Positions 14,095 to 62,039 are shown, counted from the first letter of the stretch. The stretch: 64,000 bases of DNA from Synechococcus sp. (GCA_047285535.1 JBJBDC010000001.1:2432136-2496135), one strand, 5' to 3'. Program-made: numbers and translations. The notes: a model not told the origin generated them from the letters alone.

Positions 14095-14116
14095 AAACCC
14101 CATAATGACTGTTAGT

Positions 14117-14190
<74 letters not shown>

Positions 14191-15277
14191 TTAAGTCACT
14201 CCAAGGGATCTCAAGAAATGGGCACAGCGTGCCCACTGCCAAATTCATCGTTTGTGCCCACTCCGTGTCCACTTGGAATTTCAGTGGCTCCCAGAGCAGG
14301 CTCAGATTCGGTGATCGCGCCCAGCATTCCGATCACTCGCATCGTCTCCTGCATGTGGTGCCCAAGCATCCGATAGGCCGCGGCGACGGCTTCAGGATCT
14401 CGGGTCTCGATGCATCCGATCCAATCGGTTTCCAGTTGATCCAGTTCAAACACAACTCTTAAACAGAACCGTTCAACAGCGAGCATCTAGAGGACTGCAG
14501 TCAATCCTCAGTTTGGGCACTTTGGAAGCAAGCGAAAAAGACCGCATTGCATGATGCCGCCTGGCCTGGGACTCAAGGCCAGGGTGAGGGGTCCGCTCAC
14601 CGTGACCTGTCTGGCTTTGTCCCGTCGAGCGGCCGCTCCACGGCTGTAACACTTCGCGATGCCAGCCATTCTCAGGGCTGCTTAAGCGGACGAATCTGGA
14701 GGATCCCATCGTGAGCCGCTCACGATGGACCATTCCCGGCCAGCACCGTTCGCAGGAGGCTTGCCTAGTCGACAGAAGCGATATTTCGTAAACCTGAATC
14801 ACACAGTTGAGGACGTAGTTTCTCTGTTGTTACTCCAATAGTGACGCCGCTTGTCATTAATCCAAGGGCCTTGTCCTCCTGATTGATACGCCTCAGAGCT
14901 TGCTCAACAATTCAGATGCATGAGTGAGCATTGATCATCTATCCACAAATATCAGTCCACTCGCAGAAACCAAGCCGACAACGCTTCTCAGCTTCAAGAC
15001 TGGCAATAGTTTGATCGTCTAAGCGAGGCAGCAAGTGCCCCTTACGTGAATGACGAATCGTGGACGGGGCAGGCAATTTCCTGTGAAGGAGGATTGAGAA
15101 CTCCAGGAGTGAAACACAAGGTTTCTGATGGCGAACGTGGATTATGAATGCATCACGGGAGGCAAGGGTAATGAAGAGATACGCATACTTCAGCTGTCAA
15201 CCTAGAGCAAATAAAAATAAACATTATGCGAAGTTGCTCTAGTCGAGTAGCATTAAAAGAATAATGTAAACCTAACA

Positions 15278-15784
15278 ATGGAGCCATCGAAAGATATACT
15301 TGCAAGAGCCCAGCAAAGGTCTAACGACAGGAAAATTGTTAGCAACTCACAAAATAATTATCAGAATCATTTAGTGACTCATAATTCAATTCAATCTGAT
15401 CGGCAACTTGCGATAGCCTGGGCTAAATCTACTGGGCTAGTACATATTCCTAATAAGCCGCATGAGTTCAGCCCTATGTTGTGCTTAGTTTTAGCATTCT
15501 TTTTAGTATTTATAGGCGGAGTTATCTATTGGTTGTGGTGTAAAAATCAAAAAGATTCCTACAATGAATCCATAAGTGAAGCTGTCGCAGCATGGAGAGC
15601 GAATGGATCACCAAATCCATATCAGCATATGACCGGTACATCACAGATTCCCGTCACCCAAGAGTTAAATACAACTAGCCAAAGCCTTACGGACAAGTTA
15701 AACGAACTGGCACAGCTTCGAAAATCAGGAGTTCTAACTGAAGAAGAGTTTCAGTCCGCAAAGAAAAAAGAACTCAATTTATGA
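15278..15784 (+). CDS. Membrane protein with C-terminal SHOCT domain
   Basis: One TM; C-terminal LTDKLNELAQLRKSGVLTEEEFQSAKKK. Confidence 0.8.
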   Translation: MEPSKDILARAQQRSNDRKIVSNSQNNYQNHLVTHNSIQSDRQLAIAWAKSTGLVHIPNKPHEFSPMLCLVLAFFLVFIGGVIYWLWCKNQKDSYNESISEAVAAWRANGSPNPYQHMTGTSQIPVTQELNTTSQSLTDKLNELAQLRKSGVLTEEEFQSAKKKELNL

Positions 15785-16690: not shown

Positions 16691-18043
16691 ATGAGCGATT
16701 CAGAGCAAAACAATGAAGATAGAGTCAAGGTATTTCCTGTTCAACTAACAAGCTGGATTGAAGGCCAGCCTGACCTGGCATACCTTGTAGAAGCAGCGAA
16801 CAGCACTCCTGCCCTTTACAAGACAGGCAGCGAAAATCTAAAAGTCGCCCCACAAAGAGAAGATATCGTCAATAAAAAATACAGCAGCACTACCGCAAAG
16901 GTCAGGGAATTTGTCTGGCCTTCTGCCAGAAGCATGCGTGGAGATTGCTTCGGGACAAAAACATTTGACGAAACATGTGCAAGGGCAGCCAACACAATGG
17001 CTGGGAGCACACTATGGGATGCTGTAAGCACAGTTCCATTTGTACAATTTGCCTTAATTAACTACCTAAAATTTGCCTCTCTGCCAGTTGCTTTTATCAT
17101 CTCTATAGGACTAATGGTTCTATCAAATGTAGCTGGAAGAACAGGGGCCAATAGAGCCAAAGGAAGAGGCGCAATAGCTAACTATGGACTGGCCTTTTTC
17201 ATCCTACTTTCGCTTGTAAAAACGCTCCTATCCGGGGTTGGCTTCGATATCCTCGTCAACAAGGACGGAATCACAAAAGAATATGCACAGCAAGTACTTA
17301 GCGAGCAAATAGAGAAAAAGCAGTCAACCGTCGAAGAACTTCAAGCTCTAAAAAACCCGAAACTGATTAATCTGCAATCCGCATGTCAGCCACTACGCGA
17401 TAAACTAGGCAATATCAACAAAGATTTGCAACCTGAGGAACACAACACAACATGGGTCATGGCATTTGGCACATGGAAGCAGAAACAGACAATGGTGGGA
17501 CTAGGAAACGATGCACTTATTAAAAAGTTCGGAGGAGTAAGTGGAATTCCAGGAGTCTGCAACCAGGCAAGCGCACAGCTAGCTCTAGATCTCAAAGATG
17601 CAGAACAAATGCGAGAGGAGATCAGTTTGGCTCAAAACAAACTTGGCAACGAAACAGCATTAGACATTCTTCAGAGCGATTTTCCTAAAGTTTTCAGCAA
17701 TGAATTCAAGATCACCGAAGATGGGGTTGTCGAAATAAGGTCAGGTCAAGAAGTTGTAGGACAAGCATTTACACAGTTCTTTAACAAGATACAAGATCCA
17801 GAAAGGATATTTGAACTTGGAATATCACTCTTTTGGATGGGTGTCAGCATCATCCTTAGCGTGATGGCAACAATACTCTTGTGGGCTCTTTCTAATACAA
17901 AAGAAATGAAAATGTCTTACAACACAAAGCTGCTGAGGTACAGAATGGACCTTCTACAGTCCTATCAAGACAACCTGCCATTGGCACTGAAGCTAAGGCG
18001 AGAACGTAGAGCTCAAGAACAACAAAATGGAGGACAATCATGA
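16691..18043 (+). CDS. Uncharacterised membrane protein (N-terminal TMs, large helical extracytoplasmic loop, C-terminal TM); gene 1 of the ZorAB-like operon
   Basis: Hydrophobic stretches at about aa 110-185 and 375-400; coiled-coil-like middle; ATGA overlap with the next gene. Confidence 0.8.
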   Translation: MSDSEQNNEDRVKVFPVQLTSWIEGQPDLAYLVEAANSTPALYKTGSENLKVAPQREDIVNKKYSSTTAKVREFVWPSARSMRGDCFGTKTFDETCARAANTMAGSTLWDAVSTVPFVQFALINYLKFASLPVAFIISIGLMVLSNVAGRTGANRAKGRGAIANYGLAFFILLSLVKTLLSGVGFDILVNKDGITKEYAQQVLSEQIEKKQSTVEELQALKNPKLINLQSACQPLRDKLGNINKDLQPEEHNTTWVMAFGTWKQKQTMVGLGNDALIKKFGGVSGIPGVCNQASAQLALDLKDAEQMREEISLAQNKLGNETALDILQSDFPKVFSNEFKITEDGVVEIRSGQEVVGQAFTQFFNKIQDPERIFELGISLFWMGVSIILSVMATILLWALSNTKEMKMSYNTKLLRYRMDLLQSYQDNLPLALKLRRERRAQEQQNGGQS

Positions 18044-18540
18044 CTGGTTCAACCGCATGGATCCCACTAAGTAAAAGGTCGACTGACATTCAAAATAAAG
18101 TCCAAAAAATTTACGAGCTTTATGCAGATCAAAAGGTATTCCAAGAAGCACTCGATGCTTACGAATCTGAAGATTGGGGACTCATCCCGGATGGTCTTTT
18201 TTATAAAGGGTTAATAGAATGTCAACGCCAAAAGCGGCTTATATCTGCCAGTGAAATCAAAAGGCTGCAAACATCTCTAGCCAACGAGAGAACAGGTGCC
18301 GAGGAAACTTATGAAGACGAGGGGATAGAAGTCTTCACAGCACCCTCTGATGAATTAGGCCAACCGCTCAAGTGGTTTAGGGCCAATCCACCTAATAGCA
18401 ACATCAAGAATCAGGCAGAGGATGAATTCAGAATCAGATTGTTAGACCTGTACATCGCTCACGTCAGCAAGACGGGAGAGACTTACTTTCCCCCCCTAGA
18501 GGAAAAGTTACGCACAAGAGCAGACTTCTTTGAGGAGTGA
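18040..18540 (+). CDS. Uncharacterised soluble acidic protein; gene 2 of the operon
   Basis: 166-aa ORF tightly linked to both neighbours; GGAGG upstream. Confidence 0.75.
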   Translation: MTGSTAWIPLSKRSTDIQNKVQKIYELYADQKVFQEALDAYESEDWGLIPDGLFYKGLIECQRQKRLISASEIKRLQTSLANERTGAEETYEDEGIEVFTAPSDELGQPLKWFRANPPNSNIKNQAEDEFRIRLLDLYIAHVSKTGETYFPPLEEKLRTRADFFEE

Positions 18541-18543
18541 TAT

Positions 18544-20043
18544 ATGGAATGGATACTTGACAACATCTCAACAGCCGGCCTCTCAATCCTATCCATTCAG
18601 TCATTCATTTTCATCATAACCATATGGCTGAGCATATATCAAGAGAAAAAGCTATCCCCACTAAAGAAGAAACTAAAAAACTGCAGAGAACAGATTGCAG
18701 ATAATATCAACTTAATAGACACAGAGAGTTCAAAGAATCGGGCGTTAGAACTCGCAATCGAATGCAAAGAAAGATATCAACATGCAGCCTCTGCAATTGA
18801 GAACATAAGCGCTGAGACCATTGCAGCTAACACAATTGATGAATACCAGATCATTAGAAAAGGGCCAAAGAAATGGACATTGGGAGAGGTAAATGAACTC
18901 ATTACTGGAGCACCAACATTTCTAATTACACTTGGACTAATAGGTACTTTTTATGGACTCATTCAAAATATGGCGAAGCTCTCTCTACTCTTGACTACGC
19001 AGGAGAACCTAGGCCAGACAGAGGGGTTGATTAACAACTTTGCAAATATCTTTCCCGCCATGGGAGCAGCATTCTCAACCAGTCTTGCTGGTGTATTTTA
19101 CAGTTCAATGATTTGGATTCTAAGCATCCTGTTCGGCACAATTAACAGCAGGGAAAAGCTGGAACAATCAATGTGTGATTACTTAGAACATATTGTTCAA
19201 GTGAACTGTAGAACCTCGTCATTAAGTGCAGCACTCGACAGAATGGAAGATATACTTACAGATTATTTAAGCAACTTCACCAATATCGTAGGGGGTACTA
19301 TTGAAAAATCAGTAGACAGAGCAATAGGCAATTTAGTAAATACACTAAAGAATCACGTTGATAATACGGCAGCTTTTACTAGAGAGATTGAAATAAGCTG
19401 CGGTCAACTAAAAGGTGCTGGAGAAGTCTTTTCTATTGCCGCAGAGCAACTCCACGAAAGCTCTTTTGCAGACGAATTCTCTAATGCCTGCTCAAAATTT
19501 ATAGATCATACTAATTTACTAGAGCAAGCATCGCAGAATATTAAAGTCAGTTCTTTAAATCTAAGCAGGAGCATCAATGATCTCAATGGCGTCATTGAGA
19601 GTACAGGAGAACTTCAGTCAGCACAGCTTAGTGAATTAGCTCAGTCAAGCAAGACGATGGCTTTAACATCATCATCATTGGTAGATTCGAACGACCAATC
19701 GATACGAGAACTGAACAATGCGGTACTTTCGATACAAAGTATTCAAAAGAGAGGGATGACATGGCTGAGCATGAGAGCCAAAACAGACGAAAAAATAACA
19801 GCTTTAAACGACGACCTTAGAAAAATAGTTGTGCAGTTTAGCGCTGTAAATGAGAGAATAATTTCATCATCTCAATCGACTTTTGACACTTACAAGCAAG
19901 AGGTAAATCGCATTACAGAATACGCCAGAGAATTGACGAAGCTCAGCAATGATAGGAGAAAGGATTATGAAGCCATAAGAGAAGGCCTCAATCAAATCAA
20001 ATCAATTGACGAAAAAGTGAGCAGACTCTCAAGCGATAAATGA
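18544..20043 (+). CDS. ZorA-like MotA/TolQ/ExbB proton-channel protein with a long helical cytoplasmic tail
   Basis: TM1 near the N-terminus, TM2 APTFLITLGLIGTFYGL, TM3 AAFSTSLAGV, then about 290 aa of helical tail. Confidence 0.8.
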   Translation: MEWILDNISTAGLSILSIQSFIFIITIWLSIYQEKKLSPLKKKLKNCREQIADNINLIDTESSKNRALELAIECKERYQHAASAIENISAETIAANTIDEYQIIRKGPKKWTLGEVNELITGAPTFLITLGLIGTFYGLIQNMAKLSLLLTTQENLGQTEGLINNFANIFPAMGAAFSTSLAGVFYSSMIWILSILFGTINSREKLEQSMCDYLEHIVQVNCRTSSLSAALDRMEDILTDYLSNFTNIVGGTIEKSVDRAIGNLVNTLKNHVDNTAAFTREIEISCGQLKGAGEVFSIAAEQLHESSFADEFSNACSKFIDHTNLLEQASQNIKVSSLNLSRSINDLNGVIESTGELQSAQLSELAQSSKTMALTSSSLVDSNDQSIRELNNAVLSIQSIQKRGMTWLSMRAKTDEKITALNDDLRKIVVQFSAVNERIISSSQSTFDTYKQEVNRITEYARELTKLSNDRRKDYEAIREGLNQIKSIDEKVSRLSSDK

Positions 20044-20666
20044 GAAAGAAAAAATACTCATCATTAACCAATGAGCACAATACATGGATGTCACTGACAG
20101 ACATGCTGTCAAGCACTCTGATGATTACATTCTTATTTATTGCAGTAACAACATTGATCAGGGCGATGAACGCAAAACCACCCGTTATCAATTTACCTGA
20201 TACCGAAGAGTATAGATTTAACACTGGCAGCTTTAATGTGAGTCAAAGCTTCTCAAGGGCATTGAATGAGAATGCGATCCCTGAAATAGAAAGCACTATC
20301 TTCTGCTACGGGATTGATACAATTGAAATCGTCGGACATACGGATGGAAGACCAAATACAGGACGTGGAAACATAGATCAAACCATAGAAGCGGCATTTC
20401 GCACTTCAGATACGAAGAAAGTCATCATAGGGAGTAATCTCGATCTAGGTTTTATGCGAGCAATGGCAGTCAAAACCGAGATTGAGAAGACCCTTCTAAA
20501 GCAGGGGATTCGGCAAGTAAACTTTAGAATTCTATCTGCAGGAAGTACAATTAACGAAGATGGTGAATTCATGCCTGCAACAAACAAAGACCAACGCTCA
20601 CGAAGAAGAATTGAGATCCGATTTCTGAGAAGATCAAAAACACCATTCATACCTCAATGCAATTAG
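20040..20666 (+). CDS. ZorB-like MotB/OmpA-domain protein
   Basis: WMSLTDML TM with the conserved Asp; IEIVGHTD, LGFMRAMAV and RRIEIR OmpA-like motifs; ATGA overlap with the ZorA-like gene. Confidence 0.85.
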   Translation: MRKKKYSSLTNEHNTWMSLTDMLSSTLMITFLFIAVTTLIRAMNAKPPVINLPDTEEYRFNTGSFNVSQSFSRALNENAIPEIESTIFCYGIDTIEIVGHTDGRPNTGRGNIDQTIEAAFRTSDTKKVIIGSNLDLGFMRAMAVKTEIEKTLLKQGIRQVNFRILSAGSTINEDGEFMPATNKDQRSRRRIEIRFLRRSKTPFIPQCN

Positions 20667-22056: not shown

Positions 22057-22458
22057 ATGATGAATAATTCAGCCGCCTTGGTCCTACTCCTGCTTGCGGG
22101 ATGCTCCTTGAAAGCAGCGCTTCCAACTGTTGCAATTCAGCGTTGCTACGACGGCGATACTTGCACGACATCCTCAGGAGAGAAGATTCGACTGGCTTGT
22201 ATCGACACGCCAGAGGTTTCAGGTCACAAGGCTGACCCCGTACCGGCCAAGGCAGCAGGCGATTACCTACGCCGCATGGTCGTAGGCAAACAGCTGGAGA
22301 TACGCCGCATCACGAAAGACAGGTATGGCCGAACGGTGGGTGAACTGTATCTATCTGGCCCCCACATCACCCGGCGGAACGTGCAGCGGGAAATGGTTAG
22401 GAGTGGTCATGCAGTGGTCATACCTAAGTACGCCAAGCAGTGCCCCTGGACGGGATAA
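22057..22458 (+). CDS. Thermonuclease (SNase-like) lipoprotein
   Basis: LLAGC lipobox; DGDT, IRLACIDTPE and DRYGRTV motifs. Confidence 0.92.
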   Translation: MMNNSAALVLLLLAGCSLKAALPTVAIQRCYDGDTCTTSSGEKIRLACIDTPEVSGHKADPVPAKAAGDYLRRMVVGKQLEIRRITKDRYGRTVGELYLSGPHITRRNVQREMVRSGHAVVIPKYAKQCPWTG

Positions 22459-25214: not shown

Positions 25215-28200
25215 ATGAGTAATGTATTCAGCCAAGACGTCGTAGGCATTGAGTTAACAGGTCTTTCTTTGTCGTCTAAGATTATCAATCTAGATGGAAG
25301 TGACGAGAGGGTATGGGCCACAATTAACTTCCAGGAAGACTTGTCAGGTTTTGACAGAGGATACCTTGGCTATTATTCAAATGATTTAGATAAATACATC
25401 TCATTGCCTTTTATTTATGACCATGAGATAGATAAAACATCGGCTCAAGGTTATATGAATATTAATCAATATGCGGCAAGTGGAACTTACGAACTGGATT
25501 CAATTGCCCTCCATGATAAAGCTGGGAACTCGTTTTATGCCAATCATGACGATGATGGTTGGGAAGACTATCTTGCCAGTGCTGGTGTTGTTGACACGTC
25601 CTTCGAAGTTAAAAACACTAATCAGGATGTTGAAGGTATTGAGTTAACAGGTCTTTCTTTGTCGTCTAAGATTATCAATCTAGATGGAAGTGACGAGAGG
25701 GTATGGGCCACAATTAACTTCCAGGAAGACTTGTCAGGTTTTGACAGAGGATACCTTGGCTATTATTCAAATGATTTAGATAAATACATCTCATTGCCTT
25801 TTATTTATGACCATGAGATAGATAAAACATCGGCTCAAGGTTATATGAATATTAATCAATATGCGGCAAGTGGAACTTACGAACTGGATTCAATTGCCCT
25901 CCATGATAAAGCTGGGAACTCGTTTTATGCCAATCATGACGATGATGGTTGGGAAGACTATCTTGCCAGTGCTGGTGTTGTTGACACGTCCTTCGAAGTT
26001 AAAAACACTAATCAGGATGTTGAAGGTATTGAGTTAACAGGTCTTTCTTTGTCGTCTAAGATTATCAATCTAGATGGAAGTGACGAGAGGGTATGGGCCA
26101 CAATTAACTTCCAGGAAGACTTGTCAGGTTTTGACAGAGGATACCTTGGCTATTATTCAAATGATTTAGATAAATACATCTCATTGCCTTTTATTTATGA
26201 CCATGAGATAGATAAAGCATCGGCTCAAGGTTATATGAATATTAATCAATATGCGGCAAGTGGAACTTACGAACTGGATTCAATTGCCCTCCATGATAAA
26301 GCTGGGAACTCGTTTTATGCCAATCATGACGATGATGGTTGGGAAGACTATCTTGCCAGTGCTGGTGTTGTTGACACATCGTTTACTATTTCGCGCAAGG
26401 TAAGTGGAAATCATTCGCCAATCCTCAGCGGTACTCCTGTTGTTCTCGCCAATGGCACAGAAGATGTTGACTACATTCTTAAAGCCTCCGATCTGCTTCA
26501 GGGTTATAGCGATCCCGATGGTGATTCTCTTTCAGTAACTGACTTAACCAGTTCGGTTGGCTCTCTCACCAATAACGGCAATGGCACCTGGACACTGAAC
26601 ACTCCAAAAGACTTCAACGGTAAGATTAGACTTTCCTATTCAGTTGTTGATGGCAAAGGTGGTTCCCTTACTGCACAAAATAGCTATTCGCTGCCTGATC
26701 TAAACAAGTCGCCAAGCTTTCCTGCTTTCATTGAGCTGCGTGATCTTGATGGCAGTAATGGATTCAAAATCAATGGCATTGATGAATTTGATCGTCCATT
26801 TCGAGTCAGTGGCGCGGGAGATATAAATGGTGACGGTATTGATGATCTCATTATCGGTGCAACTGGGGCTTATGCAAATGGTAATGCTAATTCTGGAGAG
26901 ACCTATGTTATCTTTGGAAGCAATAAGGTTTTCAGTAGTAGCTTTAACCTTTCTGATCTGAATGGCAAAAATGGCTTCAAGATAAACGGCATTGGAAGGA
27001 ATGACTTTTCAGGAAGCTGTGTCAGCAGTGCAGGCGATGTCAACGACGATGGTAACGATGATCTGATCATCAGTAGCACGATGCGAAACAAGGTCTGGGT
27101 TGTTTTTGGTAGCAATAAGAGTTTCAGCAGCAGCATTGAACTTTCTGACCTAAATGGCAGAAATGGTTTCACCATCTATGGCTCAGGAGGCATTATTAGT
27201 GACGCAGGTGACGTCAACGGCGATGGTATCGATGATCTGATTCTTGGCGATGCTGGGGCAGATGCCAATTACAGGAGGAATGTTGGTGAGGCCTATGTGA
27301 TTTTTGGCAGCAAGTTGGGTTTCAACAGCAAATTCAATCTGCACTCTGGCGCACTTTCAAACCTGAATGGCGCCAACGGTTTTGAGATAATTGGTATTGA
27401 TCAAGATGACTACGCTGGCGGCTCAGTCAGTGGCGCAGGTGATGTTAATGGTGATGGTATCGATGATCTGATTATCGGTGCATCTGGAGCTGATGCAAAT
27501 GGTAAGCAAGATTCTGGAGAGACGTATGTTGTCTTTGGCAACAAAAAGGGTTTCAGCAGTAGCACTAAACTTTCTGAACTAAATGGCAATAATGGCTTCA
27601 AGATAAACGGTATAGGACAGCATGACAGATCAGGAAACTCAGTCAGTGGCGCAGGTGATGTGAATGGTGATGGTATCGATGATCTGATTATCGGTGCAGT
27701 ATATGCCGATGCAAATGGTAATGTACGGGCTGGGGAGTCCTATGTTGTCTTTGGGAATAATAAGGCTTTCAACAGCACCGTAGAACTTTCTGACCTGAAT
27801 GGAATCACTGGTTTTCAGATAAACGGTATCGACGCAGAGGACAGATTAGGAAGCTCCGTCAGTGGCGCAGGTGATGTTAATGGTGATGGTGTCGATGATC
27901 TGATTATCGGTGCATCTGGAGGCGATCCCAATGGCGACAAAATCGGTCAGGTCGGCGGTGCCGGAGAGACTTATGTGGTTTTTGGCAGCACTAAGGGTTT
28001 CAATAGCATCCTTGAACTTTCTGACCTTAATGGCAGCAAGGGCTTTAAGATTAATGGTATTGATACAGGTGACAGCTCTGGCGGCTCAGTCAGTGGCGCA
28101 GGTGATGTAAATGGCGACGGTATTGATGATCTCATTATCGGTGGAACTGGGGCTAATGAAAGTTATGTGGTCTTTGGCAGAAGCAGTTCCAATGACGACG

Positions 28201-31200
28201 AGCAAGGGAACAACAAACCTATTCTCAGGGGTACTCCTTCTTTCCTTGCTAATGGCGCAGAAGATCTTGCCTATGTGGTCAAAGAAACAGATCTTTTAGA
28301 GGGATATTCCGATCCCGATGGCCACAGTCTTTCGGTTGCTGGTCTAACAAGTTCGATTGGTTCTCTCATTGAAAATGGCAATGACACCTGGACTCTGAAT
28401 ACTCCAAAAGACTTCAACGGCAAGATTGAACTGTCTTATGCAGTCATTGACGGGAATGGTGGTTCTGTTGCTGCACAAAACAGTTTTTTACTGACCGCTG
28501 TTAATGACGTTCCGATTCTTAGCGGACACTATGTTGTTCTTGCCGATGGTACAGAAGATGTTGCCTACACAATCAAAGCCACCGATCTCCTTCAGGGGTA
28601 TAGCGATGTTGATGGTGATGTCTTATCTATTAGCGATTTGACTACATCGGTTGGTTCTCTCGCCGACAATGGTGACAGCACTTGGATGTTGACAACACCA
28701 GATAGTTTCAACGGAAGCATTGATCTGTCTTATTTCGTCATTGATGGCAACGGTGGTTCGATAGCTGCCACAAAAAAAGTCTCATTGACGGCCGTCAATG
28801 ATGCGCCCATTCTCACTCGCCCTCGTGTTGATCTTCGCCCTCCTGTTGATCTTGTCGATGGCACAGGAAATGTTGCCTACACAATCAAAGCCACCGATCT
28901 ACTTCAGGGGTATAGAGATTTTGATGGTGATGTCTTATCTATTATCGATTTGACTACATCGCTTGGTTCTCTCGCCGACAATGGTGACAGCACCTGGACG
29001 CTGACAACACCAGATAATTTCAACGGAAGGATGCTTCTGTATTATTCCGTCATTGATGGCAACGGTGGTTCGATAGCTGCCACAAGAGATGTCTTATTGA
29101 CGGCCGTCAATTATAATTATGCGCCCGTTGAGGACAAAATTATTGGTACGTCTTACAGGGATGTTGAAACAGCAGGCACGACAGATCTGGTGACAGACAG
29201 CCTCGGTGGCGTGTATGCGCGTAGCTTCGGAGGCACGCTTGATGCCATTACTTACAACGGCAGCCAGATGAAAGATGGCTTCTTTGCTGGATGGTCCATC
29301 AAAGGGGCGGAAACCATCGATGGTGTCAACAATGTCACCTGGAAACACAGCTCTGGTTCCATTTCAATCTGGAATACAGATGCCAATTGGAATTACACAG
29401 GTGGTGCGTTTTATGGCTCAGCGAATACCTCAGAAGGACTGCAGTGGGAAGCAGCTTTTGATCAGGACTTCAATGAGGACAAAATTATTGGTACGTCTTA
29501 CAGGGATGTTGAAACAGCAGGCACGACAGATCTGGTGACAGACAGCCTCGGTGGCGTGTATGCGCGTAGCTTCGGAGGCACGCTTGATGCCATTACTTAC
29601 AACGGCAGCCAGATGAAAGATGGCTTCTTTGCTGGATGGTCCATCAAAGGGGCGGAAACCATCGATGGTGTCAACAATGTCACCTGGAAACACAGCTCTG
29701 GTTCCATTTCAATCTGGAATACAGATGCCAATTGGAATTACACAGGTGGTGCGTTTTATGGCTCAGCGAATACCTCAGAAGGACTGCAGTGGGAAGCAGC
29801 TTTTGATCAGGACTTCAATGAGGACAAAATTATTGGTACGTCTTACAGGGATGTTGAAACAGCAGGCACGACAGATCTGGTGACAGACAGCCTCGGTGGC
29901 GTGTATGCGCGTAGCTTCGGAGGCACGCTTGATGCCATTACTTACAACGGCAGCCAGATGAAAGATGGCTTCTTTGCTGGATGGTCCATCAAAGGGGCGG
30001 AAACCATCGATGGTGTCAACAATGTCACCTGGAAACACAGCTCTGGTTCCATTTCAATCTGGAATACAGATGCCAATTGGAATTACACAGGTGGTGCGTT
30101 TTATGGCTCAGCGAATACCTCAGAAGGACTGCAGTGGGAAGCAGCTTTTGATCAGGACTTCAATGAGGACAAAATTATTGGTACGTCTTACAGGGATGTT
30201 GAAACAGCAGGCACGACAGATCTGGTGACAGACAGCCTCGGTGGCGTGTATGCGCGTAGCTCCGGAGGCACGCTTGATGCCATTACTTACAACGGCAGCC
30301 AGATGAAAGATGGCTTCTTTGCTGGATGGTCCATCAAAGGGGCGGAAACCATCGATGGTGTCAACAATGTCACCTGGAAACACAGCTCTGGTTCCATTTC
30401 AATCTGGAATACAGATGCCAATTGGAATTACACAGGTGGTGCGTTTTATGGCTCAGCGAATACCTCAGAAGGACTGCAGTGGGAAGCAGCTTTTGATCAG
30501 GACTTCAATGAGGACAAAATTATTGGTACGTCTTACAGGGATGTTGAAACAGCAGGCACGACAGATCTGGTGACAGACAGCCTCGGTGGCGTGTATGCGC
30601 GTAGCTCCGGAGGCACGCTTGATGCCATTACTTACAACGGCAGCCAGATGAAAGATGGCTTCTTTGCTGGATGGTCCATCAAAGGGGCGGAAACCATCGA
30701 TGGTGTCAACAATGTCACCTGGAAACACAGCTCTGGTTCCATTTCAATCTGGAATACAGATGCCAATTGGAATTACACAGGTGGTGCGTTTTATGGCTCA
30801 GCGAATACCTCAGAAGGACTGCAGTGGGAAGCAGCTTTTGATCAGGACTTCAATGAGGACAAAATTATTGGTACGTCTTACAGGGATGTTGAAACAGCAG
30901 GCACGACAGATCTGGTGACAGACAGCCTCGGTGGCGTGTATGCGCGTAGCTCCGGAGGCACGCTTGATGCCATTACTTACAACGGCAGCCAGATGAAAGA
31001 TGGCTTCTTTGCTGGATGGTCCATCAAAGGGGCGGAAACCATCGATGGTGTCAACAATGTCACCTGGAAACACAGCTCTGGTTCCATTTCAATCTGGAAT
31101 ACAGATGCCAATTGGAATTACACAGGTGGTGCGTTTTATGGCTCAGCGAATACCTCAGAAGGACTGCAGTGGGAAGCAGCTTTTGATCAGGACTTCAATG

Positions 31201-31235
31201 AAGACAAAATGATTGGAGCTGATCCACTTGCGTAG
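25215..31235 (+). CDS. Giant repeat-rich surface/adhesin protein (Ig-like repeats, cadherin-like domains, FG-GAP propeller, Trp-rich C-terminal repeats)
   Basis: 2006-aa ORF; GDVNGDGIDDLIIGA FG-GAP repeats; TED..Y...DLL.GYSD.DGD cadherin-like units; tandem 130-aa and 115-aa repeats. Confidence 0.9.
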   Translation: MSNVFSQDVVGIELTGLSLSSKIINLDGSDERVWATINFQEDLSGFDRGYLGYYSNDLDKYISLPFIYDHEIDKTSAQGYMNINQYAASGTYELDSIALHDKAGNSFYANHDDDGWEDYLASAGVVDTSFEVKNTNQDVEGIELTGLSLSSKIINLDGSDERVWATINFQEDLSGFDRGYLGYYSNDLDKYISLPFIYDHEIDKTSAQGYMNINQYAASGTYELDSIALHDKAGNSFYANHDDDGWEDYLASAGVVDTSFEVKNTNQDVEGIELTGLSLSSKIINLDGSDERVWATINFQEDLSGFDRGYLGYYSNDLDKYISLPFIYDHEIDKASAQGYMNINQYAASGTYELDSIALHDKAGNSFYANHDDDGWEDYLASAGVVDTSFTISRKVSGNHSPILSGTPVVLANGTEDVDYILKASDLLQGYSDPDGDSLSVTDLTSSVGSLTNNGNGTWTLNTPKDFNGKIRLSYSVVDGKGGSLTAQNSYSLPDLNKSPSFPAFIELRDLDGSNGFKINGIDEFDRPFRVSGAGDINGDGIDDLIIGATGAYANGNANSGETYVIFGSNKVFSSSFNLSDLNGKNGFKINGIGRNDFSGSCVSSAGDVNDDGNDDLIISSTMRNKVWVVFGSNKSFSSSIELSDLNGRNGFTIYGSGGIISDAGDVNGDGIDDLILGDAGADANYRRNVGEAYVIFGSKLGFNSKFNLHSGALSNLNGANGFEIIGIDQDDYAGGSVSGAGDVNGDGIDDLIIGASGADANGKQDSGETYVVFGNKKGFSSSTKLSELNGNNGFKINGIGQHDRSGNSVSGAGDVNGDGIDDLIIGAVYADANGNVRAGESYVVFGNNKAFNSTVELSDLNGITGFQINGIDAEDRLGSSVSGAGDVNGDGVDDLIIGASGGDPNGDKIGQVGGAGETYVVFGSTKGFNSILELSDLNGSKGFKINGIDTGDSSGGSVSGAGDVNGDGIDDLIIGGTGANESYVVFGRSSSNDDEQGNNKPILRGTPSFLANGAEDLAYVVKETDLLEGYSDPDGHSLSVAGLTSSIGSLIENGNDTWTLNTPKDFNGKIELSYAVIDGNGGSVAAQNSFLLTAVNDVPILSGHYVVLADGTEDVAYTIKATDLLQGYSDVDGDVLSISDLTTSVGSLADNGDSTWMLTTPDSFNGSIDLSYFVIDGNGGSIAATKKVSLTAVNDAPILTRPRVDLRPPVDLVDGTGNVAYTIKATDLLQGYRDFDGDVLSIIDLTTSLGSLADNGDSTWTLTTPDNFNGRMLLYYSVIDGNGGSIAATRDVLLTAVNYNYAPVEDKIIGTSYRDVETAGTTDLVTDSLGGVYARSFGGTLDAITYNGSQMKDGFFAGWSIKGAETIDGVNNVTWKHSSGSISIWNTDANWNYTGGAFYGSANTSEGLQWEAAFDQDFNEDKIIGTSYRDVETAGTTDLVTDSLGGVYARSFGGTLDAITYNGSQMKDGFFAGWSIKGAETIDGVNNVTWKHSSGSISIWNTDANWNYTGGAFYGSANTSEGLQWEAAFDQDFNEDKIIGTSYRDVETAGTTDLVTDSLGGVYARSFGGTLDAITYNGSQMKDGFFAGWSIKGAETIDGVNNVTWKHSSGSISIWNTDANWNYTGGAFYGSANTSEGLQWEAAFDQDFNEDKIIGTSYRDVETAGTTDLVTDSLGGVYARSSGGTLDAITYNGSQMKDGFFAGWSIKGAETIDGVNNVTWKHSSGSISIWNTDANWNYTGGAFYGSANTSEGLQWEAAFDQDFNEDKIIGTSYRDVETAGTTDLVTDSLGGVYARSSGGTLDAITYNGSQMKDGFFAGWSIKGAETIDGVNNVTWKHSSGSISIWNTDANWNYTGGAFYGSANTSEGLQWEAAFDQDFNEDKIIGTSYRDVETAGTTDLVTDSLGGVYARSSGGTLDAITYNGSQMKDGFFAGWSIKGAETIDGVNNVTWKHSSGSISIWNTDANWNYTGGAFYGSANTSEGLQWEAAFDQDFNEDKMIGADPLA
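25248..26377 (+). repeat. Three near-identical 390-bp tandem repeats
   Basis: attgagttaacagg at 25248, 25638 and 26028. Confidence 0.95.
29130..31199 (+). repeat. Six near-identical 345-bp tandem repeats
   Basis: gaggacaaaattattggtacg at 29130, 29475, 29820, 30165, 30510 and 30855. Confidence 0.97.
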
Positions 31236-60182: not shown

Positions 60183-62039
60183 GTGGGAGAGATGGGCAAA
60201 CCAGTTCAGATTTTGAGAAGCAAGACATGGTCCGAATTGCGGGAATTATTTGCTGAATTGCCACCTCAGCGCATTTGGTTCTTTTGTTTCGTTTTATTGG
60301 TATCACTACTCCAGGGCTTGTTTGACATGCTTCTGGTCGGATTGCTTGCCCGTTTTGTTGGGGTGCTGACTGGGGCAAAGCTTGGGGATCAGGTCCCTGG
60401 GATCTGGTTTTTCGGAGGTCGATTTCTCGACCAAGCTGCCTGGATTGTGGCTCTGCTGATTGTTGCTTACTGGTTTGCTTCTGGTTTGCGTTTTGCATCT
60501 GCTTATTTGCAAAGCGTTTTGGCTGCAGATATTTGGAGTGATTTAGTTAATAAAGTCTACTCCAATTTGATGATGCAGCGCTATGAGTTCTTTACGCAAA
60601 AGCGGACGGCGGTGCTTTCCGAGCGCTTTAATCGTGTGCTTGGTAGAATGTCAACCACGGTTCTTTCGCCGTTGATTGTTATTGTTGGAAATGGCGTAAC
60701 TGTTGCAGTATTACTAATAGGCGTGGCCATTGTTCTTGGCTTGAAAGCTTGGATGGTCTTCGCCCTCATGCTGTGTTGCTATTTAGTGACATCGCTGCTC
60801 ATTGTTCCTTATCTAAGACTTGCATCCAAGCAAAGGGTGCGTTTTTCGCGGCGAATTAATTTGATTTTTTCCGAGTCAATTCGATCCATCCGTGATGTTC
60901 AGCTTTATTCTTCTCATCGTTATTTTATTGATCAATTCTCTAGAGATGGAATCGTTGCTAAGCGGTATGAGAGGTTGTCAAGATTGCTTCCAGATGTCCC
61001 TCGGTTCGTAATTGAGCCGATGGCAATAACGATTCTTTTTTTGGTGGGATTGGTGCCTTCTTTGGTGGTAGGTAATGGACAGGCGTTGAGAGATGCTTTG
61101 CCTGAACTCGCCACCATGTTGGTAGTGCTTTTACGTATGTCTGCCCCACTTCAAAATGTGACCCGAGATCTCAACAAACTGAGGGGGGCCTTGCCGGAAA
61201 TTCAGGATGCAATGGAGTTGTTGCGAATGAAAGGACACAGAATGTTGTTGGGCTCTCCAGGTGTTCCTTCAGCTGAAGGTGTCATGCCACGAGGATTGAT
61301 CGAGTTGCGAAATGTTGGGTTTAGTTATGAAAACTCTTCAGTTGAAGTTGTTTCGGGGATTGATCTTGCAATTCCAATTGGATCTCGAATTGCTTTGGTC
61401 GGTAAAACTGGCAGTGGTAAATCAACCTTGGCTCATTTACTTCTTGGCTTGTTGGAACCAACTGATGGTGAGTTGTTACTCGACGGTGTACCTGTCACGG
61501 ATGAAGAAATTCCAGCTTGGCAGGCTAATTGTGCATTTGTGCCCCAAGACATTCGTCTGCTGGATGCAAGTGTAAGGGAGAATGTTGCATTTTGTCAGGA
61601 TCCTGAATTGATTGACGATGATGAGGTTTGGTCCGCGCTCAATGCAGCCCAATTTGACGAATTTGTTGCCCAAATGTCGTATGGTTTGTATACAATTTGT
61701 GGGGAAAATGGCGTCCTTCTTTCTGGTGGACAACGCCAGCGATTGTCCTTGGCAAGAGCTTTTTATCGGAGAGCTAAATTATTAGTCCTTGATGAGGCGA
61801 CAAGTGCTCTTGATAATAAAACCGAATATGATGTCATGAATGCTCTTGATTTGGTGGGAAGGCGTTGCACGATTGTTGTGATCGCTCACCGAATGTCAAC
61901 TGTTCGGAAGTGTGATCGAATTTATGAACTTGATGGCGGCAGAATAAAGTCAGAAGGTGATTTTCGAACTTTGCTCGAGTCTTCGTCAAGTTTCCGTGAG
62001 ATGACATTGCTGGATGAGAGCGGCTTAAGCAATGGCTGA
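60183..62039 (+). CDS. ABC exporter, fused permease/ATPase (polysaccharide/lipid flippase-like)
   Basis: TM domain plus GKTGSGKS, LSGGQRQR and LDEATSALD. Confidence 0.95.
   Translation: MGEMGKPVQILRSKTWSELRELFAELPPQRIWFFCFVLLVSLLQGLFDMLLVGLLARFVGVLTGAKLGDQVPGIWFFGGRFLDQAAWIVALLIVAYWFASGLRFASAYLQSVLAADIWSDLVNKVYSNLMMQRYEFFTQKRTAVLSERFNRVLGRMSTTVLSPLIVIVGNGVTVAVLLIGVAIVLGLKAWMVFALMLCCYLVTSLLIVPYLRLASKQRVRFSRRINLIFSESIRSIRDVQLYSSHRYFIDQFSRDGIVAKRYERLSRLLPDVPRFVIEPMAITILFLVGLVPSLVVGNGQALRDALPELATMLVVLLRMSAPLQNVTRDLNKLRGALPEIQDAMELLRMKGHRMLLGSPGVPSAEGVMPRGLIELRNVGFSYENSSVEVVSGIDLAIPIGSRIALVGKTGSGKSTLAHLLLGLLEPTDGELLLDGVPVTDEEIPAWQANCAFVPQDIRLLDASVRENVAFCQDPELIDDDEVWSALNAAQFDEFVAQMSYGLYTICGENGVLLSGGQRQRLSLARAFYRRAKLLVLDEATSALDNKTEYDVMNALDLVGRRCTIVVIAHRMSTVRKCDRIYELDGGRIKSEGDFRTLLESSSSFREMTLLDESGLSNG

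Follow-up and report, generated by a model that had tools for sequence, protein, structure and literature searches.

A four-gene operon in a 64,000-nucleotide stretch of Synechococcus sp. DNA (the window) may encode a mobile phage-defence system that couples an ion motor, anchored to peptidoglycan, to a portable membrane module, a reading to which we give an even chance. Synechococcus, both marine and freshwater, accounts for much primary production and is heavily attacked by cyanophages, and we know of few Synechococcus defences. If the operon protects against phage, it would represent a Zorya-like architecture with a membrane-protein output and not a nuclease, would provide the first functional handle on the protein family C3a124, and would be a case of one membrane module that can work with an ion-driven motor as well as with CRISPR type III loci.

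Organization and genomic setting of the operon

The ORF listing places four genes, overlapping or near-abutting and all on the + strand, at positions 16691–20666 (Table 1). ATGA start/stop overlaps of 4 nt join genes 1 and 2 at 18040 and genes 3 and 4 at 20040, and a 3-nt spacer (18541–18543) lies between genes 2 and 3, as read from the sequence. An earlier description made from the DNA alone (the sequence-only reading) had claimed four co-oriented, tightly linked, AT-rich genes; its coordinates, overlaps and gap were all reproduced, and the GC content of the operon is 0.414, versus 0.488 for the whole window and 0.56–0.58 for the flanking core DNA (6–10 kb and 40–53 kb). Promoter and terminator scans gave results at chance level.

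Table 1. Coordinates of the operon genes and the nearby tRNA gene, with products as predicted.
Feature	Position	Strand	Description
gene 1	16691-18043	+	450 aa; C3a124-family membrane protein
gene 2	18040-18540	+	166 aa; acidic soluble partner of gene 1
gene 3	18544-20043	+	499 aa; ZorA-like 3-TM channel subunit, long C-terminal tail
gene 4	20040-20666	+	208 aa; ZorB-like, single TM helix, OmpA-type peptidoglycan-binding domain
tRNA-Arg(CCT)	14116-14191	+	ARAGORN

The low-GC segment carrying the operon probably has the tRNA-Arg(CCT) gene as its integration landmark. An exact 14–45-nt repeat of the tRNA 3′ end, which could delimit the island, was searched for downstream and none was found. The same low-GC stretch encodes a 2006-aa repetitive surface-type protein 4.5 kb downstream of the operon.

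Scanning 34 other ORFs of the window with PADLOC revealed no recognised defence gene near the operon and no cas gene; the only matches were a mad3-like one, 40 kb distant, and one to a LuxR-type regulator that is probably spurious. An SNase nuclease, whose gene neighbours the operon in the window and also in strain WH7803, was considered as a fifth member, but tblastn finds SNase near only two of seven four-gene loci and it was consequently left out of the system.

Genes 3 and 4 resemble ZorA and ZorB

Hydropathy analysis assigns to gene 3 three TM segments (residues 7–33, 119–140 and 179–200) followed by ∼300 non-membrane residues, and its translation contains GLIGTFYGL and AFSTSLAG, in agreement with the MotA-like TM motifs and long tail described earlier. 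The gene 4 product has one TM segment by the same analysis, with D21 inside it, and contains the motif WMSLTD. D21 is invariant in 7/7 gene 4 orthologues, as are the OmpA-type hallmarks GHTD, GSNxDLGxxRA and RRIExRF. The TM aspartate and OmpA-like domain attributed to this protein are thus backed by motif conservation, but not by the Pfam OmpA model, which left gene 4 unmatched at E ≤ 0.1.

The claim of a ZorAB-like pair was supported by PADLOC models and by solved structures. Gene 3 matched PADLOC ZorA1 (PDLC00597) with E 1e-16 over residues 18–432, and gene 4 matched ZorB2 with E 3.8e-10. When orthologue profiles were compared with solved structures, the top match of gene 3 was the ZorA chain 8vvn_C (E 3.6e-7; MotA chains, 0.26–9) and that of gene 4 was the ZorB chain 8vvi_A (E 1.9e-5). 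Residues 12–50 of gene 4 align to 8vvi_A without offset, D21 falling on D21 of that chain. Passages of PMC11890865 identify 8vvn and 8vvi as type I and type II ZorAB, and D21 as the critical aspartate in 8vvi_A.

The similarity is remote. Gene 3 scored 21.3 bits against NCBIfam ZorA_2, for which the cut-off is 100, and a PDB search with its single sequence gave no match. In PHROGs, genes 1–3 were unmatched and gene 4 had just one match, at 0.0018, to a family without assigned function. Grouping with the housekeeping ExbBD/TolQR proteins, which would have spoken against a Zorya-type pair, was also checked: neither gene 3 nor gene 4 matched a MotA, ExbB or TolQ family, or a MotB, ExbD or TolR family, in Pfam and NCBIfam at E ≤ 0.1. 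Taken together, these comparisons indicate that genes 3 and 4 are remote relatives of ZorA and ZorB, far under the curated family cut-offs, and support a ZorA/ZorB-like rather than a MotAB/ExbBD-like nature.

Sequence evidence for a portable gene 1/2 pair

Gene 1 matched the PADLOC model PDLC01074 (C3a124) with E 3.2e-33 (113 bits, model positions 4–359 of 371), and a whole-genome search with the C3a124 model recovered a match in the window genome at E 1.8e-32. On this evidence gene 1 is a member of C3a124, a cyanobacterial membrane family. Shah et al. catalogued C3a124 in 2018, without assigned function, as accessory cluster 124 of type III-B CRISPR loci, and its CRISPR association was first based on four members (PMC6546367); that association could reflect co-location in islands only. 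The two partners had been called unknown in the sequence-only reading, which no longer holds for gene 1 and does hold for gene 2, for which no Pfam, PADLOC, NCBIfam or PHROG family was found. DUF4407 was also a candidate for gene 1, with an atlas score of 0.77, but none of 151 phylum genomes exceeded the family cut-off, the window genome was unmatched, and it was rejected.

Strong TM segments were predicted in gene 1 by hydropathy at residues ∼125–148, 163–186 and 375–400, with a weaker one at ∼97–122 and a loop of ∼185 residues. With charge taken into account, the predicted topology has four TM segments, both termini inside and a helical domain of ∼185 aa outside. The AF2 model is all helical (pLDDT 82). 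Two cysteines, C232 and C290, are nearly invariant, and the outer-face domain probably contains a disulfide. Foldseek against PDB returned nothing at E ≤ 0.001, and the best result of a wide VIA-align search (Z 7.8) consisted just of generic helical hairpins, over residues 182–344; a Z of this size does not exceed the noise stated for helical models, and gene 1 was therefore given no fold assignment. These searches gave neither a CARF or other sensor domain nor a fold match suggesting pore formation. Phage records were searched for relatives of gene 1 and none was found, a result that speaks neither for nor against defence.

Hydropathy shows no TM segment in the gene 2 product, whose composition is acidic (D+E 30, K+R 21); its AF2 model is weak (pLDDT 68) and Foldseek gave no fold match (best E 0.87). 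Its C-terminal motif of ∼35 residues, LLDLYIxHVxxTGETYFP, is common to small proteins encoded after C3a124 genes elsewhere (hhalign on this motif: probability 90%, E 1.5e-6, 35 columns), and four relatives carry it fused C-terminally to the gene 1 part. At the sister loci that lack ZorAB, gene 2 follows gene 1 in 3/3. Genes 1 and 2 are thus, to judge from these sequences, a portable pair found also without ZorAB; the multi-TM protein with a large helical loop and the acidic soluble protein are as first described.

Gene 1 shares only 17–22% identity with its distant C3a124 relatives. Of the 13 distant loci scanned, 6 have Cas, CARF, WYL or Csx genes at a distance of no more than 4.5 kb, and 10 have a pentapeptide-repeat protein as third component beside gene 1/2. 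Fused gene 1–gene 2 forms adjoin Cmr6, Csx1 CARF-HEPN, Csx16 and WYL genes, and on plasmid pSYSA of Synechocystis 6803 a homologue is located beyond csx18-cas1-cas2; a literature search found no paper on the pSYSA homologues. The window genome (99.99% complete) had no match to three CRISPR-Cas marker models (Cmr6, CARF-HEPN and Cas1). The proximity to defence genes that had been suggested as a check is therefore seen for relatives of gene 1, as CRISPR-signalling genes, and not beside the operon in the window.

Recurrence and mobility of the four-gene set

A locus search with the gene 1 sequence alone retrieved nothing, and an alignment-based search retrieved nine loci; L009, which comes from an archaeal MAG, matched by chance over 30 residues and was set aside. 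All four genes are present in 6/6 Synechococcus loci of sufficient length (L001, L003–L007), co-oriented in four and with the gene 4/gene 3 pair convergent in two; the lowest identity across the six is 39% for gene 1 and 25% for gene 3. A strong gene 1 orthologue occurs in 5 genomes of a 301-genome family sample, with gene 3 within ∼1.2 kb in every one. The four-gene synteny, whose recurrence the sequence-only reading had wanted examined, is thus a repeated feature. Gene 1 proteins linked to ZorAB group together on a single branch (support 100/99), present in 100% of 200 bootstrap trees.

These data bear on whether the two pairs, an orphan ZorAB-like one and gene 1/2, are simply neighbours in a variable island, each working by itself. 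Each does occur alone (gene 1/2 forms without ZorAB, L055–L062 and L035–L054; ZorAB-like pairs without gene 1/2, L063–L068), but we consider such independence highly improbable: adjacency is kept in all six loci despite the divergence of gene 3 and the convergent rearrangement, the five strong orthologues all adjoin gene 3, the ZorAB-linked gene 1 proteins make up a single branch, and the genes share 4-nt start/stop overlaps.

The WH7803 copy of the set sits after the tmRNA gene and not tRNA-Arg. Horizontal mobility of the set is supported by strong gene 1 + gene 3 pairs in 5/301 genomes, by the GC content of 0.414 and by the tRNA-Arg or tmRNA sites.

The distribution also matters for an alternative outside defence, in which the motor would energise gene 1 as a TolA/TonB-like transducer spanning the periplasm; its task would be envelope maintenance, uptake, motility or the handling of surface proteins. 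We regard this envelope machine as unlikely. PMC11890865 states that related 5:2 motors drive Ton uptake, gliding and flagella, and a sister class of motor sits in tubulin-like gene sets; the long helical hairpin of gene 1 on the predicted outer face, the lack of defence neighbours in the window and the surface-type protein downstream are consistent with the same role. Against it, the distribution is patchy, the operon sits at tRNA or tmRNA sites, relatives of gene 1 repeatedly adjoin CRISPR-signalling genes without any motor, and Pfam and NCBIfam gave no TonB- or TolA-like match, in addition to no MotA, ExbB or TolQ match.

Proposed mechanism

For the preferred reading, a motor coupled to a membrane module in defence, we infer that the parts bind each other, which way the signal runs, that the membrane is the target, and the defence function itself. 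Gene 4 would anchor to peptidoglycan through its OmpA-type domain and carry the channel aspartate, D21, while gene 3 would form the channel ring, its ∼300-residue tail projecting into the cytoplasm. The cytoplasmic gene 2 protein would dock on gene 1 through the conserved motif. Phage entry would disturb the envelope and activate the motor, the ZorA-like tail would relay the signal to the gene 2/gene 1 complex, and gene 1 would then depolarise or permeabilise the membrane, aborting the infection.

Genes 1 and 2 might be a portable membrane-acting effector cassette driven by different immune sensors, type III CRISPR-Cas signalling in many cyanobacteria and a Zorya-type motor in a Synechococcus clade, which would make the operon a fourth Zorya architecture; we advance this only tentatively, as a possibility that is more doubtful than probable. 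If true, it would be the first Zorya architecture to use a membrane effector where others use a nuclease, and would link CRISPR accessory modules directly to Zorya in evolution.

The roles could conceivably be reversed, gene 1/2 serving as sensor or regulator, with its outer-face domain detecting envelope damage or a phage component, and the ZorAB-like channel, once open, collapsing the membrane potential. The conserved domain of ∼185 residues on the predicted outer face of gene 1, with its two conserved cysteines, would suit a sensor, and the varying third components beside gene 1/2 (ZorAB-like here, pentapeptide-repeat in most of the distant loci) fit a constant sensor with variable outputs. 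Type III CRISPR accessory proteins usually act as effectors, which argues in the other direction. That ZorAB acts as a proton-channel effector was proposed early on, as quoted in a passage of PMC8565338, but the Zorya work, in passages of PMC11890865, gives sensing to ZorAB and effector roles to its partners, and we hold the reversal to be quite unlikely. Testable models are available for the two forms of the module: WH7803 carries the four-gene one, and plasmid pSYSA of Synechocystis 6803 the one linked to CRISPR.

Comparison with known systems

Like the MotAB, ExbBD and TolQR 5:2 stators, the operon combines a channel subunit bearing a G-x-x-G-T-F type TM motif with a single-pass subunit bearing a TM aspartate and a peptidoglycan-binding domain. 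Unlike them, it matches none of their Pfam or NCBIfam models at E ≤ 0.1, has no flagellar, TonB or TolA genes among its neighbours, and has a long cytoplasmic tail, a trait of ZorA.

Among picocyanobacteria, the closest other relatives of gene 4 are found in FtsZl1-type gene sets (HMM E 8.5e-62 to 1.9e-70), whose ZorA-like subunits are related to gene 3 (E ∼1e-41 to 1e-48). Neighbouring genes in these sets encode, among others, a Tubulin_2-like protein (∼500 aa) and a ∼1100-aa protein, and gene 1/2 is absent. Makarova and Koonin reportedly noted OmpA-family partners of FtsZl1 in 2010. Since these tubulin-like sets are not known for defence, the kind of motor is not defence-specific.

With C3a124 the operon shares the size of gene 1, its plan of TM segments plus helical domain, and the small partner with the common motif that follows. 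It differs from the catalogued cluster in having no type III-B CRISPR-Cas module beside it, and from most of the distant loci in having a ZorAB-like pair in place of the pentapeptide-repeat protein.

Zorya types I–III consist of a ZorAB core with ZorCD, ZorE or ZorFG (structures 8QYD, 8VVN and 8VVI). The operon lacks ZorC, ZorD, ZorE, ZorF and ZorG, as the sequence-only reading had recognised: the PADLOC models of Zor partners matched neither genes 1–2 nor the 34 other window ORFs that were scanned. The window genome also gave no EH_Signature, DUF3348 or DUF2894 match, these being domains of ZorC/F/G type, in a search whose positive controls were silent for EH_Signature and DUF3348, and a literature search found no paper on a Zorya form with partners of the gene 1/2 type. 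In place of the known partners, the operon encodes a small acidic protein along with a membrane protein of several passes, and no nuclease; its similarity to ZorAB remains under the curated cut-offs, and its tail is ∼300 residues long, the ZorA chains in PDB having 696–729 aa in total. Common to the operon and Zorya are the ZorA-like subunit, with three TM segments and a long tail in the cytoplasm, the ZorB-like subunit with a peptidoglycan-binding domain and a TM aspartate at the type II ZorB position (D21), the tight linkage to partner genes and the mobile, patchy distribution.

Layout of the operon and its ZorAB-like pair

The four genes of the operon (see the table of positions) are separated as the sequence-only reading had described: both ATGA overlaps and the 3-nt gap were verified on the sequence. 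Scans for an operon promoter and terminator gave results no better than chance.

Genes 3 and 4 had been proposed to encode a pair resembling ZorAB, the motor core of the anti-phage system Zorya. Pfam at E <= 0.1 gave neither a MotA_ExbB nor an OmpA match for the two proteins, and for gene 3 returned only sub-threshold coiled-coil noise. The sole relevant NCBIfam match was antiphage_ZorA_2 (21.3 bits versus a cut-off of 100), with no MotA, ExbB or TolQ model matching. In PADLOC, gene 3 matches ZorA1 (PDLC00597, 1e-16, residues 18-432) and gene 4 matches ZorB2 (PDLC00641, 3.8e-10). The best match of a gene 3 profile built from seven orthologues was the ZorA chain of 8vvn (3.6e-7), followed by ZorA of 8qyy and 8qyk (about 2e-3), with MotA chains at 0.26 or worse; the gene 4 profile best matched the ZorB chain of 8vvi (1.9e-5). 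The accessible text of PMC11890865 assigns 8VVN to type I ZorAB and 8VVI to type II, with critical ZorB aspartates at D24 and D21, respectively. Residues 12-50 of gene 4 align with 8vvi_A 12-50 at zero offset, so that D21 of gene 4 is the equivalent of the critical type II aspartate. This residue is unchanged in 7/7 orthologues, in which GHTD, GSNxDLGxxRA, RRIExRF and two cysteines are also invariant. Hydropathy indicates three transmembrane (TM) segments and a tail of ~300 residues in gene 3, and one TM segment in gene 4. The database relatives of gene 3 (n=49) either lack annotation or bear wrong labels, 'methyl-accepting chemotaxis protein' being one. Taken together, the profile and model scores, the D21 match and the TM plan bear out the proposed kinship: genes 3 and 4 follow a ZorAB-like plan and by sequence have ZorAB as their nearest family, yet are remote relatives of it.

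Positions of the operon genes and of the other features discussed
Feature	Location	Strand	Description
Gene 1	window 16691-18043	+	ORF, 450 aa
Gene 2	window 18040-18540	+	ORF, 166 aa
Gene 3	window 18544-20043	+	ORF, 499 aa
Gene 4	window 20040-20666	+	ORF, 208 aa
tRNA-Arg(CCT)	window 14116-14191		2.5 kb upstream of operon
SHOCT-domain protein	window 15278-15784	+	shortly upstream of operon
Staphylococcal-nuclease-family gene	window 22057-22458	+	1.4 kb downstream of operon
Staphylococcal-nuclease-family gene, WH7803	L001:12155-12775	-	230 bp downstream
Repeat-containing ORF	window 25215-31235	+	2006 aa
Protein matching mad3	window 60183-62039	+	618 aa; 40 kb from operon
C3a124, X and pentapeptide cassette	L036, L039, L042-L045, L047, L050, L053, L054		about 8-12 kb in each
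pSYSA pair, gene 1/gene 2-type	L081, NC_005230.1 97173-99015		449-aa gene and overlapping 171-aa gene
Genes 1/2 with two further genes	L057:4507-9477	-	further genes of 472 and 556 aa
Divergent upstream gene	L056:9649-10752; L057:9625-10800	+	shared by the two loci
Second ZorAB-like class	L063:8011-18879; L065:51-10709; L066:136-10483; L068:7254-13756

Gene 1 and its link to gene 2

Gene 1 can no longer be called an unknown partner, as it matches the catalogued family 'C3a124' (PADLOC PDLC01074, 3.2e-33). The name, absent from one supplement of the PADLOC paper, was traced to Shah et al. 2018 (PMC6546367), the accessible part of which lists cluster 124 (4 members, association score 44.42, representative PCC7418_1341, subtype III-B) as function unknown, a larger protein averaging 430 aa with no domain match. 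With E <= 0.001 as threshold, an HMM search of 1.84 billion representatives yielded 260 family members, of which some measure 560-900 aa, and a word-based search found 63 relatives of like length, the best name among them being 'putative conserved membrane protein'. AF2 predicts, with confidence (pLDDT 82, pTM 0.62), a structure that is helical throughout. Hydropathy and a positive loop at 150-162 point to four TM helices and to an inside location of the two termini; residues 186-372, a domain of ~185 residues containing the nearly invariant C232 and C290, would face outside. The structural searches proposed earlier led from the gene 3 and 4 profiles to ZorA and ZorB chains, but gave no fold match for the other two proteins: neither Foldseek nor a wide VIA-align search returned a specific match for gene 1, and a fold search with the gene 2 model was likewise empty.

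Pfam, PADLOC, NCBIfam and PHROGs offer no family for gene 2, which has 24 close relatives, each of ~166 aa. Its model, of moderate quality (pLDDT 68), shows two helical parts with a disordered acidic linker between them. The C-terminal 35 residues resemble (hhalign probability 90%, E 1.5e-6) the N-terminal region of X, the unannotated proteins encoded after C3a124 genes elsewhere among cyanobacteria. Four relatives, one each in L058 and L059 and two in L060, are fusion proteins: the gene 2 motif continues the gene 1 part at its C-terminal end, past the last TM helix and hence on the predicted cytoplasmic side, in the order in which the separate genes lie. No other evidence speaks as strongly for the gene 1 and gene 2 proteins forming a working unit.

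Recurrence of the four-gene set

Scanning species-representative genomes with an alignment as query gave nine loci. All four genes are present in each of the six sufficiently long ones (L001, which is WH7803, and L003-L007); they are co-oriented in four of these, while in two genes 4/3 are convergent with genes 1/2. Across the six loci identity falls to 39% for gene 1 and 25% for gene 3. Two short contigs show nothing but gene 1, or gene 1 plus the beginning of gene 2, and the remaining locus was discarded as a chance match. The check on synteny came out in favour of a real four-gene operon, now better defined than when first seen.

Among 301 genomes sampled evenly from the window's family, gene 1 had a match at E <= 1e-10 in 16 and gene 3 had a match in 21. 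Strong gene 1 orthologues (E < 1e-190) occur in five genomes (G000, the window's own, G665, G495, G633 and G566), and in all five a strong gene 3 lies no more than about 1.2 kb away. For the gene 1 family, 29 proteins hand-chosen from the fetched loci were used to compute a maximum-likelihood tree. The seven ZorAB-linked proteins form one branch (support 100/99; 100% of 200 bootstrap trees), whose sister comprises three forms from picocyanobacteria that possess gene 2 and lack ZorAB, the fused forms being next out. The tree is rooted at its midpoint only and gives no order of events.

Relatives of gene 1 in CRISPR neighbourhoods

Of 401 genomes sampled from the phylum, 19 match the PADLOC C3a124 model (11/155 genera). 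Stretches of 20 kb were taken around 20 C3a124 places, and 13 of them were annotated with a simple longest-ORF caller. Ten of the 13 show the order gene 1 relative, X and pentapeptide-repeat protein, a cassette often found near CARF, WYL or Csx genes, with X apparently fused to the C3a124 protein in L053; in the other three the gene 1 relative is followed only by a ~175-aa protein. No convincing ZorAB-like neighbour was found in the 13 loci, the single match being at E 0.00098. Cas, CARF, WYL or Csx genes lie within 4.5 kb in six (L035, L036, L043, L044, L045 and L052), and NYN, STAND-TPR, CHAT or kinase genes accompany others. The expected association with defence genes holds for some relatives of gene 1 but not for the window operon, near which PADLOC detected no known defence gene among the 34 other window ORFs scanned.

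Among picocyanobacteria with weaker gene 1 matches, 7 of 11 genomes were examined. The fused forms of L059 and L060 adjoin Cmr6, Csx1-type CARF-HEPN, Csx16 and WYL genes. L055, in which a search of all ORFs revealed gene 2, is near a RES-Xre pair and a NACHT-TPR protein. In genome G633 a fused form linked to CRISPR exists alongside the four-gene set with ZorAB. Nine plasmids carry gene 1 relatives, including pSYSA of Synechocystis 6803, where the pair lies past csx18-cas1-cas2; a literature search found no paper on these two pSYSA genes. Shah et al. used a CRISPR3 plasmid-interference assay in their work. The window's genome has no Cmr6, CARF-HEPN or Cas1 match, so here the gene 1/2 module must work without CRISPR.

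In L057, which has no ZorAB, genes 1/2 are followed by two unannotated same-strand genes that may represent a third kind of partner. The divergent gene upstream is common to L056 and L057 (64% identity), the L057 copy containing DUF4145.

ZorAB-like motors in tubulin-like gene sets

Picocyanobacteria contain a second ZorAB-like class (ZorA-like 543-600 aa, ZorB-like 200-209 aa), its ZorB-like subunit being near gene 4 (E about 1e-62 to 1e-70). These sets lack genes 1 and 2; their neighbours are a Tubulin_2-like protein (~500 aa), a larger protein (~1100 aa) in which one stretch is weakly FtsA-like, and several unknowns. Such a set resembles an FtsZl1-type operon equipped with an ion-driven motor of its own. 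In its accessible part, the 2010 paper by Makarova and Koonin (PMC2875224) describes OmpA-family partners in FtsZl1 operons and proposes membrane remodelling. Since the second class sits in tubulin-like sets, motors of this type are not bound to one function, which counts against, or limits, a defence reading of the operon.

Genomic context and mobility

GC content is 0.414 in the operon, versus 0.488 in the window and 0.56-0.58 at 6-10 kb and 40-53 kb. The suggestion of a tRNA-linked island agrees with this low GC and with the tRNA-Arg gene upstream, but a search downstream for a repeated tRNA 3' end came up empty, leaving the borders of the foreign-looking segment undefined. In WH7803 the four genes directly follow the tmRNA gene; for this strain, PMC5490813 cites transcriptomes of infection by Syn9. 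The tRNA and tmRNA sites, the low GC and the rarity of the operon (only 5 of the 301 genomes sampled) mark it as accessory, horizontally moving cargo, a pattern typical of defence genes, though not exclusive to them.

The small membrane protein upstream of the operon has a C-terminal SHOCT domain (Pfam 3e-07) and also matches phrog_2700 (5.4e-08). The staphylococcal-nuclease-family gene downstream starts with a lipoprotein-like signal (…LLLAGCS…) and shares 39% identity with the WH7803 copy; tblastn showed none near the other five four-gene loci. The 2006-aa ORF, in the same low-GC stretch, has several long near-identical internal repeats (units of about 135 aa N-terminally and about 115 aa C-terminally) and no PADLOC match; by composition it looks like a surface protein. 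The distant 618-aa protein matches mad3 (1.5e-28) and, weakly, mad8, and may belong to a methylation-associated defence system.

Comparison with Zorya

In the operon a remote ZorAB-like motor is joined to a second module, the C3a124 membrane pair of CRISPR type III neighbourhoods. Our literature search found no paper on this combination, although supplements and online tables may hold more. Of the proposed Zorya variant, the proximity of genes 3 and 4 to ZorAB stands, but membership of a described type does not: lacking a ZorC-G partner and scoring under the curated cut-offs, the operon falls outside Zorya types I-III. Its putative function is probably that of a Zorya-like system with a membrane-acting partner.
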